A stretch of DNA of 36,012 nucleotides, from sequence record SRR31147125_12107; one strand, written 5' to 3'. The position numbers and the translations under genes were made by a program. The notes under the pieces were generated by a model that did no database searches, was not told where the DNA came from, and worked only from the letters and a program-made list of their open reading frames with translations. The stretch's first letter is position 1; every line of letters starts with the position of its first letter. Shown here piece by piece: positions 1-15,468 of this stretch.

Positions 1-1065
1 TTCGATCCCCTTCAGAGGAAAATGCGAGTCTTAGTGTGCCACCTTCATCCTCTCTGATCTTTAATACTTCGATATCTTTAATATTGACATTTCGTTCTGA
101 TAATCCATTGGTAATTTGAGATATCATACCAGGTCTATCTTCAACAGATACTAATATATCAAAATGGGGTTTTAAAAAGCCCTTGGTATCGCTTGGAATT
201 GACAATCTATCCCGAGCTGATTTTTCAAAATATTTTTCCAGATTTTTCGCCTCAAGCATCTGTTTCACTTGAATTAGCTCATTAATGTATTGTTCAATGT
301 AGGAGACAATCATGTCTGAATTTGTTTCAAGTATATCGCTCCATATACCATAAGGGCTGGACGCAACCCTCGTCATATCACGAAATCCGCCAGCAGCCAT
401 CTTTAAAAAATGCGCACTTTCTTTTTGACGACTGGCAACTAAATTCATTAAAGCAACAGAAGCCATTTGCGGTAAATGACTTACAGCGGCTGCTATTTCA
501 TCATGCAATTCCGGTAATAACAGAAGAACCTTTGCGCCGAGTCTTTCCAACAACTCACCAAAAGACCTTCGTCTTTTTTCGCTAATAGGTCGGCTGGGAG
601 TCAGCACATAAGTCGTATTTTCAAATAAAAAAGGATCTGCTGCTTTCACACCTCGGAATTCAGACCCGGCCATTGGATGACCACCGATAAAATCACAATC
701 TGCGGGAAGATGTATATTCGCCGTTTCAATTATTTTTCTCTTTGTACTTCCAACATCGGTAATTAACGTATTTGGTTTGACATAACGCCCGATGAGTGGC
801 AAGAGTTTGATGATATCCAGAATAGGCGTGCAAATAAATATCAAATTTGCCTTTTCAACAGCCTCTTTTAGATTATCCAGGGCATATGCTTCATCCAGGA
901 ACTGTCTTTTTGACGCTTGCTTTAGCACATCCGGCGAATCCACCCCAAGAATGGTGCCTTTAAAACCTTTTCTTTTAAAGCCAGCCCCAGTGAACCACCA
1001 ATCAGTCCGATACCGACTATTAAAATATTATCATAGCTTTCATTTGTCGACATTTTCGTTTCCAT
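1..1065 (-). CDS. tyrA: Prephenate dehydrogenase with C-terminal ACT domain (3'-truncated by window edge; apparent frameshift near 975)
   Basis: Manual translation, not in the ORF track. From ATG 1065: METKMSTNESYDNILIVGIGLIGGSLGLALK (Rossmann motif). After one base is restored in an A-run near 975 the frame gives TDVGSTK, FIGGHPMAGSE, HDEIAAAVSHLPQ, GGFRDMTRVASS and the ACT motif VEDRPGMISQIT. Confidence 0.93.
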
Positions 1066-1068
1066 TCC

Positions 1069-2082
1069 TTAAATCCTTTTACCTATGGCCCAGGCTATCA
1101 TACGCAATTCTTCCATTAATCTTGAAAACTGATGAGGATAAAGAGACTGAGCACCATCAGAAAGAGCATGATCCGGATCATGGTGCACCTCAATAATCAA
1201 ACCATCCGCACCCGCGGCAACTGCAGCTCGTGCCATAGGGCTGACCTTGTCCCTGCGCCCGGTTCCATGACTTGGATCCGCGACAATGGGAAGGTGGCTC
1301 AATTTTTTGGTAACAGGAATAGCAGAAATATCTAAAGTATTGCGTGTGTAATTCTCGAATGTTCGAATGCCGCGTTCACACAAAATAACATTATAATTCC
1401 CGCCGGACATAATATACTCGGCAGCCATTAATAATTCCTCAATAGTCGCGGCCATTCCCCTTTTCAGGAGAACAGGTTTTTTAGAGGACCCTATATCCCG
1501 CAACAAGCCAAAATTTTGCATATTTCGTGCACCAATCTGCAGAATATCTACATATTCTGCTACGACATCAATTTGACTGGGTTCCATAACTTCAGAAACA
1601 GTCGCCATTTTGTATTCTTCACCTGCTGCTTTTAAAATTTTCAAACCATCCTTACCCATTCCCTGAAATGAATATGGAGAAGTGCGTGGCTTAAATGCAC
1701 CACCACGTAACACTTTGGCTCCGGAACGTTGAATCTGAGAAGCAATCGTAAAAACTTGCTCTTCATTTTCTATGGAGCAGGGACCAGCTATGACTGTGAT
1801 CTGCTCAGTCCCAAAACTTGCACCTTTTACTTCAACCACTGTATCCTCTGGATGAAATGTACGACTTGCTAATTTATAGGGATCTGTTATTCGAATGACT
1901 TCATGGACACCATCTAAAAGCTCAAATTCTCGAATATCAATATTTCGCTTATCCCCTATAGCTCCAATGATAGTACGTTGAACTCCAACTACCTTATGCA
2001 CCTGGAATCCAATACTCTCTAAACGATCAGCAACAGATTTAATCATAACTTCTGTTGCTGTTTCCTTCATTACAATGACCAC
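1069..2082 (-). CDS. aroF: DAHP synthase (type I-beta, N-terminal ACT-like regulatory domain)
   Basis: Motifs [41 protein letters not shown] and DPSHGTG. The start is probably GTG 2082 (VVIVMK) after GAAGGG, rather than 2133. Confidence 0.95.
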
Positions 2083-2108
2083 TCGATATATCCCTTCGTT
2101 TAAATATT

Positions 2109-2366
2109 TTATGACATTTGAATATTTCGACAAATTAAAATAATAGTAGAAAATATATTCCGAATATCCTCATCTGAAAGAGGACTCTTATTATTTGTAA
2201 CAAGTCTTTGTATGATTTCAATTTCTCTTTCTTTACTCAAAACAGTTAAATTGTTCCTGTTTTTCTCTTTACCAATCTGTAAAGCCAATTCCGCCCGTTG
2301 CGTAAGAAGATCAAGAATTTGTTCATCAATGCCATCTATTTTTCTTCGTAGTGCCGAAATATCCAT
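2109..2366 (-). CDS. Monofunctional AroQ-type chorismate mutase
   Basis: 85 aa with [30 protein letters not shown] and REIEII, the CM_2 pattern; it lies directly upstream of DAHP synthase. Confidence 0.9.
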
Positions 2367-2381
2367 TTTTCATCCTATAAT

Positions 2382-2416
2382 AAAAAAGCCCACTACTTAA
2401 TTTACTAGTAGTGGGC
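2382..2416 (-). terminator. Intrinsic (attenuator) terminator upstream of chorismate mutase
   Basis: Minus strand: GCCCACTACT-AGTAAATTA-AGTAGTGGGC-TTTTTT, a perfect 10-bp stem followed by U6, ending 15 nt before the ATG at 2366. Confidence 0.9.
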
Positions 2417-2466
2417 GAATTTTTCGTTCTATAATATAAGGCTTACTGCAAATTCCTCCCGCTACT
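2407..2466 (-). promoter_or_regulatory. Antiterminator hairpin of the attenuator
   Basis: AGTAGCGGG-AG-GAATTT (2466-2450) can pair with AAATTC-G-CCCACTACT (2422-2407). This overlaps the terminator 5' arm, so the two structures are mutually exclusive. Confidence 0.8.
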
Positions 2467-2526
2467 CAGGACAGCAAAAAAATAATAGTTAAAATAATAA
2501 AAATATTTCACAAAAAACTCGTTCAT
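2443..2526 (-). CDS. Phe/Tyr-rich attenuation leader peptide (27 aa, MNEFFVKYFYYFNYYFFAVLSSGRNLQ)
   Basis: Runs from ATG 2526 to TAA 2443 with GAGAG just upstream. Codons 4-17 contain 6 Phe (TTT) and 5 Tyr (TAT). It lies between the promoter and the terminator of an aromatic amino-acid operon. Confidence 0.85.
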   Translation of the reverse strand: MNEFFVKYFYYFNYYFFAVLSSGRNLQ

Positions 2527-2581
2527 TCTCTCGTCAATTATTCAAAAAGTTTTAATTATTCGTGTATTAATATATTAATAA

Positions 2582-2609
2582 AATATAGTATATTAAAGCG
2601 TACTGTCAA
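2582..2609 (-). promoter_or_regulatory. Sigma70-type promoter for leader-aroQ-aroF-tyrA
   Basis: TTGACA-16 nt-TATATT on the minus strand, about 55 nt upstream of the leader ATG. Confidence 0.65.
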
Positions 2610-2650
2610 GTCTTTTTTACTATTTTTGGTTACTTTTTTGCAATCACAAA

Positions 2651-3046
2651 TCATTCTTGTGCCTTGTAGTTGGCAGATTTATATTCTGCCTTTACGAAGG
2701 TATGGATATTTCCTCGCGGATTGAAATCTCCTTTCACCTCCATAAATCGAGGTTCAAGTACACCGACCAGGGCGTCTAATATTTCATTCACCACTTCTTC
2801 ATGAAAAATGCCGCGGTCGCGGAATTTGTTAATGAATAATTTATATGACTTTAACTCCAGGCAGTATTTATCGGGTATATATCTTATTTCAATAGTTGCA
2901 AAATCCGGATATCCGGTTCTTGGGCAAAGACATGTAAATTCAGGATTTGCAATCAATATTTCATAATCTCTGTTGGGATATTTATTATCAAATACCTCCA
3001 ATTTGGATTCAATAATTTCTTTCTGTCCCCTTTTTACTTCGTCCAC
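2651..3046 (-). CDS. queF: NADPH-dependent preQ0 reductase (short, unimodular type)
   Basis: PEFTCLCPRTGYPDFA, the QueF motif LELKSYKLF, HEEV and FNPRGNI. Confidence 0.93.
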   Translation of the reverse strand: MDEVKRGQKEIIESKLEVFDNKYPNRDYEILIANPEFTCLCPRTGYPDFATIEIRYIPDKYCLELKSYKLFINKFRDRGIFHEEVVNEILDALVGVLEPRFMEVKGDFNPRGNIHTFVKAEYKSANYKAQE

Positions 3047-3084
3047 TTTTTACCTCTTTCGTCACATTTACTTCTAATCGTCAT

Positions 3085-3770
3085 TTATTCAATATATTTA
3101 TTATACTGGATAGGATCAACGAGACCCAGTTGAGAAAATCCAGCTATTCGAATTCGACAGCTTTCACACAATCCACAGGCCAATCCATCCGATGTCGGTT
3201 CATAGCAACTCAACGTCAAAGAATAATCGACACCAAGGTCGAGACCTTTTTTGATGATATCCGCCTTGTTCATATATTGCAGAGGAGCATGAATTCTGAT
3301 TTTTTTCCTTCCACACCAGCTTTTGTGGCCAAATTAGCCATTTGCTCAAACGATTGTATATACTCCGGACGACAATCCGGATATCCACTGTAGTCAAGCG
3401 AATTGGCTCCGATAAAAATGTCATATGCCCCGATAACTTCAGCAAAAGCCAACGCATAAGACAAAAATATTGTATTCCGGGCAGGCACATAAGTAACCGG
3501 AATTGTTCCAGGCGCTGTCTCCTGATGAGGAACAGAGATATCATCTGTCAGTGCAGAGCCACCAAATTTGTCCAGATTAAGATCAAGTACCTGGTGCTGA
3601 TGTACTTTTAATTGTTTTGCAATCGCTCTGGCCGCATCCACTTCCTTCCTGGCTTTCTGACCATAAATAAAGCTGAGTGCGTAAACCTGATAGTGTTCTG
3701 ACAGGGCAATCGCCAATGTGGTTGCAGAATCCAATCCACCACTTAATAATGTAACAGCTTTTGTATCCAT
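3085..3770 (-). CDS. queC: 7-cyano-7-deazaguanine synthase (split at an A7 run, 3300-3306)
   Basis: [14 protein letters not shown] and GYPDCR in the 3270..3770 ORF; SCY and CGLCESC in the 3085..3273 ORF. One added A gives [19 protein letters not shown]. Confidence 0.93.
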
Positions 3771-13889: not shown

Positions 13890-15468
13890 CTAATCGTCCA
13901 TTTTAAGATCAGACAAAGCCATTCTCCGTTTATCATTTTTTAGAATAGCCAACAAAAGTGATAATATAGCTATAATGGAGAAAATTTGTGCAAAAACATC
14001 ACCATATTTGGTATAAAATGTTGTAGAATGCCGCAAGGCAATGTCGCTTACAATCGTAGCTTCCTTAAATAGTCCTGTCGTCTGGTTCACCCGACCATAT
14101 GGATCAATGAAACAAGAGATACCAGTATTCGCACAACGAGCTATTGATATTCGATTTTCAATAGAACGAAAAACAGCAATTTGGGTGTGCTGAAAAGGCG
14201 CTGATGTTTTTCCAAACCACGCATCATTTGTAATAATTGTTAAAAAATCGACACCATTACTAACAAATTTTCGAACAAAATTGGGAAAGACCGATTCAAA
14301 ACATATTGGACATGAAAAAGTATATTGCTTTTTGGGTGTACCATTATGCCTTGTCGTTTCTTTGTCACTATTTTCATTGACCGTAAAAATCGTATACTCT
14401 TTACCGCGACTAAAATCCCCAATTCCAAGAGCCATATCGTACAAAGCATGTTTCAACAAATTAAATGGGAACATATTTTTATAAGGAACTCTTTCCGAAA
14501 AGGGTACCAATTTAAATTTGGAATAATGTTGGAGACGTAAAGAGAACGGCTCAATCAACATCGCCGCGTTAAAGTAAGAATAACGATTTTCCTCCTGATA
14601 TTTAAAATCAAGCGTACCTGTTAAAATGGGAATTTGGATAGAATCCGCCAGGAATCGCAACCTGCGTAGATAGGAAGTTTCATATCGCAGATAAAATGGC
14701 ATGGCCGTTTCTGGCAATACAACTATATCCGGATTATTGGGAACAGTTTTACGGATTAAATCTTCATAGATTTTAAAATTCTTTTCCTCTTGATTTTCTT
14801 CCCATTTTTCAAAGGGATCTATATTTCCCTGTAAAAGAGCAATTCTTAAAAATTTATTTTTCGAGGTGGCATTCTTCAAAACAAGACTACCGTGAATCAG
14901 TGGGGTCAGAATCCACAGTAAAATAAGTCCTGACAGAATGACTCGCATCTTTAGATAGGGGGCCTTTTTGTAATATAGAAACAGCAGGACATTTAATGTG
15001 ACAACCCAAAAACTGACTCCATAAACAGAGGTGTATTCCGCATGCTGTATGAGTCGAATATAATAAGATTGTGAATATCCCAATAAATTCCAGGGAAAAG
15101 CAGTTTCGCCAAAAGATTGTAAATACTCAATGCTGGACCATAAAAAGGGAGAAAAAATAGGCTAATAACGAGAGACGCTGTAATAAAAATGTATGTAATA
15201 AAGCATAGATCGCCAGAAAAAAGGGCAAAATCAATAGAGCTCCGATGCAACCCGGTAACGTAACCCAACCTATCCAGAATAACGATCCAATGTCAATAAA
15301 AAGGCCTGTAACATAACCCCATCGAAAAGCTTCCTTGAGGGATTTTTCTTCCAATAAAATAAAAAAGGGGATCAGTGCCACATATGCCAAAATGCCTGTT
15401 TTAAATGGAGGCAATGACAATGCAAACAAAAGCCCTGTTAAACTTGAAAGCGCCAAATTCTTTTTCAT
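13890..15468 (-). CDS. lnt: Apolipoprotein N-acyltransferase (frame break at T-runs, 15142-15157)
   Basis: TM N-terminus, FPWNLLGYSQ, LQGNI, PETA, KLVPFSE, ICFES, TNDAWFG and ANTGIS. Restoring the T-runs gives YFFLPFLWSSIEYLQS. Confidence 0.93.

Follow-up and report, generated by a model that had tools for sequence, protein, structure and literature searches.

A leader-peptide RNA element with mixed phenylalanine and tyrosine codons precedes the chorismate mutase-DAHP synthase-tyrA operon in relatives of candidate division KSB1 and is probably a transcription attenuator

The E. coli pheL-pheA and trpL-trpEDCBA attenuators, which we take to be the Rfam families Phe_leader and Trp_leader, combine a short translated leader carrying clustered end-product codons with mutually exclusive antiterminator and terminator helices, and their leader stop codon is placed such that a terminating ribosome blocks the antiterminator. 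Each of them reads one amino acid, in a three-helix scheme that includes a 1:2 protector/pause hairpin. Vitreschak and co-workers are said to have described attenuators across taxa in 2004. For C. glutamicum aroR, a leader with a Phe-Tyr-Phe trio ahead of the aroF operon, ribosome stalling and transcription attenuation have been described (Neshat et al. 2014 as cited in PMC11802643; Mentz et al. 2013, PMC4046766); in the summary given by the review, aroR responds to Phe limitation and Tyr availability is without effect (PMC11802643). The uORFC-13-1 motif of Acholeplasma is, in its published outline, a predicted upstream ORF that has at least one Phe codon and is directly followed by an intrinsic terminator, the motif lying upstream of aroF (Brewer et al. 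2021, PMC8632094).

We analyzed a stretch of DNA of 36,012 nucleotides (sequence record SRR31147125_12107; hereafter the window), for which the original prediction had proposed an attenuator with a mixed Phe/Tyr leader controlling genes for chorismate mutase (CM), DAHP synthase (aroF) and prephenate dehydrogenase (tyrA). All elements of the proposed attenuator are found on the minus strand where they had been placed, and are listed together with the controlled genes in Table 1. Ferredoxin-like and ACT domains, as present in the DAHP synthase and prephenate dehydrogenase of this operon, mediate Tyr/Phe feedback in related enzymes. The locus has the leader, the exclusive helices and the stop-codon placement of pheL and trpL in common with these systems, and differs from them in that its family in KSB1, described below, would sense two or three amino acids, judged from its codons, and has no supported 1:2 helix. 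Compared by description, it resembles aroR in having a mixed Phe/Tyr leader ahead of a DAHP synthase operon; it differs from aroR, as far as that leader is described, in holding 11 aromatic codons within 14 rather than one Phe-Tyr-Phe trio and in belonging to a phylum other than that of the actinobacterium, and, in the loci searched, its RNA module was confined to KSB1 relatives. On the published outline of uORFC-13-1, the likeness lies in an upstream ORF and a terminator before aroF, and the difference in lineage. The original prediction expected the known range of the mechanism to be extended; this holds for the phylum, which is new, but not for the mixed Phe/Tyr leader before aroF, which was already known from the account of aroR. 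A literature search that included aromatic amino acid attenuation returned no published account of attenuation in KSB1.

Table 1. Elements of the proposed attenuator and neighboring genes in the window.
Feature	Position	Strand	Details
queF	ends 2651	minus	precedes promoter
Sigma-70-type promoter	2582..2609	minus	-35 TTGACA 2609-2604, 16-nt spacer, -10 TATATT 2587-2582
Leader ORF MNEFFVKYFYYFNYYFFAVLSSGRNLQ	2443..2526	minus	27 codons + UAA stop
Sensor codons 4-17	2476..2517	minus	6 Phe + 5 Tyr
Antiterminator 5' arm AGUAGCGGGAGGAAUUU	2450..2466	minus	leader codons 21-26
Antiterminator 3' arm AAAUUCGCCCACUACU	2407..2422	minus	contains entire terminator 5' arm
Intrinsic terminator	2382..2416	minus	10-bp stem 2416-2407/2397-2388, 9-nt loop, U6 2387-2382
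Chorismate mutase type II, 85 aa, first controlled gene	2109..2366	minus	PF01817, 1.9e-21
DAHP synthase (type I-beta), N-terminal ferredoxin-like domain	1069..2133	minus	PF00793, PF18152; NF006421, 507.6 bits; start codon uncertain
Prephenate dehydrogenase (tyrA), C-terminal ACT domain	2..943	minus	PF02153, PF20463, PF01842; runs off window

Two other regions of the window contain interrupted genes. An apolipoprotein N-acyltransferase is split on the minus strand at 13890-15468 (LNT_N at 15468-15127, CN_hydrolase at 15083-13890), and QueC at 3770-3270 covers no more than positions 1-150 of the 210-position profile and is overlapped by an ORF at 3544-3200; frameshifts or assembly errors may account for both.

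The promoter of the original prediction is present, matches the consensus at 11 of 12 positions and was the top site in a promoter scan of positions 1800 to 3200. The leader ORF translates exactly as claimed, with Phe at codons 4, 5, 9, 12, 16 and 17 and Tyr at codons 8, 10, 11, 14 and 15, such that end-product codons are clustered in a short ORF between the promoter and the first structural gene. Its ATG lacks a clear Shine-Dalgarno core; the chorismate mutase gene carries AGGA 8 nt 5' of its own ATG. Between leader and first gene lies an intrinsic terminator, which can be read directly from the letters: GCCCACUACU pairs with AGUAGUGGGC in a perfect stem followed by the U-run, with a folding energy of -17.5 kcal/mol. 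This hairpin was missed by the consensus terminator scanner, whose loops are limited to 3-8 nt. The window has a single occurrence of the pattern CCCAC-N6-30-GTGGGYTTTT, which is absent from all of 100 shuffles.

The antiterminator uses the 5' arm of the terminator, and its own 5' arm is covered by the footprint of a ribosome that has reached the stop codon. With the RNA masked under a ribosome halfway along the Phe/Tyr run, the pairing between the two antiterminator arms was recovered, exactly as proposed, as the minimum-energy fold of the nascent RNA (-14.9 kcal/mol). Equilibrium folding with ribosome masks was rejected as a means of distinguishing a stalled from a terminating ribosome, as the terminator was favored at almost every ribosome position (median probability approximately 0.98), and nascent-RNA folds were used in its place. 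Given that the terminator wins at equilibrium, antitermination must be kinetic, with the antiterminator forming before the 3' arm of the terminator is transcribed.

The closest DAHP synthase in named genomes is encoded by a metagenome-assembled genome labeled 'candidate division KSB1' (75% identity), and a search of 167 genomes in the phylum of that genome gave matches of up to 79% identity. KSB1 presumably belongs to the FCB group, and the earlier guess of an FCB-type lineage fits these nearest relatives. Of the 30 closest KSB1 loci, 29 have a Phe/Tyr-rich ATG ORF of 18-32 codons just 5' of the gene for chorismate mutase. In the closest relative, the leader is followed by nine genes (CM, aroF, tyrA, aroA, aroE, aroC, aroK, aroB and aroQ) and the upstream neighbor is divergent, indicating that the hairpin is the terminator of the leader and not the end of another gene. 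To the 30 best loci we added 60 further loci of lower identity, leaving out two genomes flagged as unpublished, and scored as leader any ATG ORF of 8-45 codons with at least five Phe/Tyr in 10 residues. Among the resulting 90 loci, such an ORF was found in 56 on the sense strand versus 9 on the antisense strand, in agreement with the original prediction, and the CCCAC...GTGGG motif with its T-run in 51 versus 0. Leader ORF and terminator motif were adjacent in 46 of the 90 loci and both were missing from 30, while eight further loci scored as carrying the ORF only have terminators with a changed core, such as CCCGC...GCGGG. A TTGAC[AT]-16/17-TA[TA]ATT promoter recurs 5' of the leader ATG in the relatives at a similar distance; a promoter score of at least 10/12 was reached by 19 of 49 family members on the sense strand versus 5 of 49 on the antisense strand, and in the 19 relatives concerned the end of the -10 hexamer is separated from the leader ATG by 18-55 nt. 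The arrangement is beyond chance and recurs in relatives.

We also considered the CCCAC/GUGGG hairpin as a general terminator of these genomes and rejected this possibility, since five genomes held 0-4 matches each. Of the eight matches, those away from the aroF sites included two behind tRNA genes, one behind an ordinary coding region and another at a His leader.

The 49 leaders of the family (window included) comprise 1279 residues, of which 201 are Phe, 213 Tyr and 10 Trp. Phe and Tyr together make up 32% of the residues in frame versus 12% and 16% in the other two frames, at least two Phe plus at least two Tyr are found in 47 of the 49 leaders, and the Phe/Tyr-rich ORF is retained in GC-rich relatives too. 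Carrying both amino acids is thus a family trait rather than a by-product of AT-rich DNA. The conserved tail of the peptide (Ser-Gly-Arg and similar) corresponds to the translated G[C/U]GGGAGG arm. A Shine-Dalgarno core precedes the leader ATG in just 11 of the 49 members, whereas the chorismate mutase genes of the family do have a Shine-Dalgarno sequence. A conserved Shine-Dalgarno-like GGGAGG is located in the antiterminator arm (window 2451-2460; columns 35-40 of alignment A2), inside the leader ORF and a few codons before its stop.

Conservation of the two helices was evaluated on a structure-blind MAFFT alignment of 47 sequences, two members with a stop far from the motif being left out. 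In the terminator, 91% of the cells were paired (slid controls, 51% at most). Its closing pair is compensatory (GC 26, AU 16, GU 5), as is another pair (UA 32, AU 5, CG 5, UG 2), and its five core (inner) pairs are invariant. In the antiterminator core, 75% of the cells were paired (slid controls, 62% at most), with compensatory changes at five pairs that are clearest at three of them (for example AU 24, GU 8, GC 5, UA 4) and with a conserved G[C/U]GGGAGG box in the 5' arm. For each helix the covariation score was reached by 0 of 500 shuffles, a control that ignores sequence relatedness. Stem covariation in relatives, which the original prediction had named as a check, is thus seen in both helices. 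The position of the stop codon is conserved as well: it always lies in or beside the antiterminator 5' arm, and the segment with which the terminator 5' arm pairs extends to 3-20 nt upstream of the leader stop in 26 of the 28 nascent-RNA folds. When approximately 640 windows were compared, the best duplex partner fell between -30 and +5 nt from the stop in 37 of 49 loci; by our own arithmetic, random placement would give approximately 3 of 49.

These data bear on the possibility that the locus merely combines a chance ORF in AT-rich DNA with a constitutive leaky terminator and is not regulated. The window is indeed AT-rich, T-rich sequence readily gives Phe codons, and the antiterminator of the window by itself is modestly better than shuffles, 11 of 100 of which reach it. 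However, an accidental ORF is at odds with the retention of the leader in GC-rich relatives, with its excess on the sense strand of the 90 loci, with the frame specificity of its Phe and Tyr codons, with covariation in both helices, and with the absence of the element where the genes sit behind trpA (see below). This explanation is already disfavored and we consider it scarcely credible.

The third helix of the E. coli scheme did not find such support. The original prediction had drawn a weak, G-U-rich 1:2 hairpin as a further possibility. It can be drawn, yet across 48 family members the antiterminator arm pairs with upstream leader RNA no better than shuffles do (0.75 versus 0.73; -9.3 versus -9.3 kcal/mol), and no protector/pause helix between the sensor codons and this arm was recognized among them. 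The switch thus appears to be a two-helix design without a protector (1:2) helix. With no conserved 1:2 helix, the untranslated default state and the synchrony of transcription and translation of the classical model are left unaccounted for.

From the 47-sequence alignment we built a covariance model, R1 (KSB1 aromatic attenuator RNA), of a family defined by the G[C/U]GGGAGG box at the 3' end of the leader, the CCCAC...GUGGG terminator and the U-run in fixed order and spacing. The window, whose sequence is part of the training alignment, matches R1 with 72.3 bits and belongs to the family. R1 matched 13 of 15 held-out KSB1 candidates and did not match any of 10 leaderless stretches. A set of 159 loci taken from metagenomes and other lineages gave no match at E <0.1; one metagenome contig reached E = 0.4. 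At E <=0.01, 87 of 151 genomes of the phylum match, many of them through training sequences. Nine genomes (G125, G132, G056, G137, G128, G130, G135, G136 and G049) match R1 two or three times, on different contigs, and further operons in these genomes may carry the module. Searches with Rfam leader families (Phe_leader, Trp_leader, His_leader and others) and the T-box gave no match in the window at the gathering score; at loose thresholds the window gave only matches at chance level, the best being the PyrG leader with 31.4 bits against a cut-off of 65. Nothing in Rfam matched twenty leaderless relatives.

Similar arrangements were encountered outside the family. A Phascolarctobacterium metagenome-assembled genome (L077, 2219-2430) has an unrelated Phe/Tyr-rich mini-ORF and a terminator directly before aroF, and two metagenome contigs (L145, 1277-1381; L140, 1260-1391) have unrelated Phe/Tyr-rich mini-ORFs in the same place; none of the three matches R1. 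Within KSB1, a 19-codon leader with five His and a CCCAC...GUGGG terminator (L259; G081:C131, minus strand, approximately 1497-1700; R1 28.7 bits) precedes a gene whose product, judged by eye only, starts like ATP phosphoribosyltransferase (HisG). KSB1 genomes thus seem to use a look-alike attenuator for histidine.

Loci devoid of both leader and motif differ from the others in genomic context: trpA lies directly upstream on the same strand in 21 of these 30 loci versus 0 of the 60 others. In 14 such genomes, picked from the whole-genome match table, an R1 match precedes aroF on the same strand at a distance of 2.7-7.7 kb. All 14 distant modules keep the arm and the terminator of the CM-proximal ones, and each of the 14 leaders holds 2-4 Trp codons beside Tyr and Phe. 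By hand count, the distant leaders have 42 Trp, 54 Tyr and 24 Phe among 429 residues, as compared with the 10 Trp of the entire CM-proximal set. The gene following the distant leader encodes TrpE (anthranilate synthase component I) in 3 of 3 cases tested, and in 10 KSB1 genomes (L291-L300, approximately 250-430 in each locus) Trp/Tyr/Phe leaders with the shared switch precede trpE, heading trp...trpA-CM-aroF supraoperons. The presence of Trp codons in leaders where trp genes join the operon indicates that sensor codons follow the genes controlled and that the switch is kept. This tracking of operon content is the strongest indirect evidence that the identity of the codons is read. At one locus with a Trp-containing leader (L305; G045:C2, 470-2898), a SerK/SbnI-like ORF (weak NCBIfam match, below cut-off) and a TrpB-like PLP enzyme (NF009057, 745.9 bits) are located between leader and aroF; the two may constitute an O-phosphoserine-dependent TrpB2 pair under aromatic attenuation.

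Codon tracking also helps to weigh the question of which amino acids are sensed. Only Phe codons might stall the ribosome effectively, Tyr codons being tolerated filler, as UAU and UAC are one base away from UUU and UUC. A precedent would be the Phe-Tyr-Phe leader of aroR, which, on the summary in the review, reacts when Phe is limiting but is indifferent to the supply of Tyr; the Tyr codons of the KSB1 leader may by analogy not act as sensors (PMC11802643). Against a sensor of this kind, Tyr is as frequent as Phe in the family leaders and nearly all of them hold at least two of each, some leaders are dominated by Tyr (for example 8 Tyr with 1-2 Phe), tyrA is part of the operon, and Trp codons appear just where trp genes join it, which argues for selection on codon identity. 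We therefore regard sensing of Phe alone as improbable, and favor a leader in which both Phe and Tyr codons would be read.

A different control principle is conceivable as well, in which a protein or ligand acts on the terminator in the manner of TRAP, PyrR or a riboswitch, with the mini-ORF incidental and the CCCAC/GUGGG core plus GGGAGG box serving as binding site. The invariance of the five core terminator pairs, unusual for a plain terminator, and the scarcity of Shine-Dalgarno sequences at the leader would suit such a model. Yet slow evolution is to be expected anyway for a core with two pairing partners, the arms are separated by a region of variable sequence and length that has no aptamer-like conserved core, and no Rfam family is matched at the gathering score. 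Moreover, the ORF retains its ATG, frame, aromatic codons and stop position, and its mix of codons varies with the genes in the operon, something not expected from a model of protein binding. Control by a protein or ligand is, in our estimation, very unlikely.

Together, these data make it very probable that the element is a ribosome-mediated leader-peptide transcription attenuator of CM-aroF-tyrA. The central claim of the original prediction, a terminator/antiterminator switch governed by the ribosome through a leader of mixed Phe/Tyr content, is backed by the conserved leader, promoter, helices and stop position and by the tracking of operon content by the codons. From these sequence features we infer leader translation, stalling, conditional termination and sensing of both Phe and Tyr. 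Transcription would begin at the promoter, with the 27-codon leader translated behind the polymerase. With charged tRNA-Phe and tRNA-Tyr plentiful, the ribosome would reach the stop and cover codons 21-26, i.e. the antiterminator 5' arm; GCCCACUACU would then pair with its downstream partner, and the terminator with its U6 would release the transcript before chorismate mutase. If either tRNA is scarce, the ribosome would stall within codons 4-17, at least three codons upstream of the arm, leaving the arm free to pair with the terminator 5' arm once this is made, and the polymerase would continue into CM-aroF-tyrA. In this scheme the transcript would be terminated only with a ribosome on the stop codon; if the leader is not translated, read-through is probable.

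A broader reading, which we put forward tentatively and hold to be rather doubtful, is that one conserved two-helix module without protector serves several operons in KSB1 and that its sensor codons are re-programmed upon operon rearrangement, with Phe and Tyr before CM-aroF-tyrA, Trp, Tyr and Phe before trpE...trpA-CM-aroF, and a His look-alike before hisG. The invariant CCCAC/GUGGG core and the in-leader GGGAGG would then reflect an added constraint, for instance holding the terminating ribosome on the arm and thereby offsetting the missing 1:2 helix.

The mechanism is the ordinary textbook one of E. coli trpL and pheL, found here in a new family from a new, little-studied phylum, and the understanding of attenuation itself is unchanged by the finding. 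What is gained is a regulatory annotation for the aromatic amino acid operon of an uncultured phylum and, with R1, an RNA family that is ready for covariance-model searches and absent from Rfam. The occurrence of one switch with Phe/Tyr or Trp/Tyr/Phe codons, depending on the genes controlled, supports codon-level programming of attenuators without bench work.
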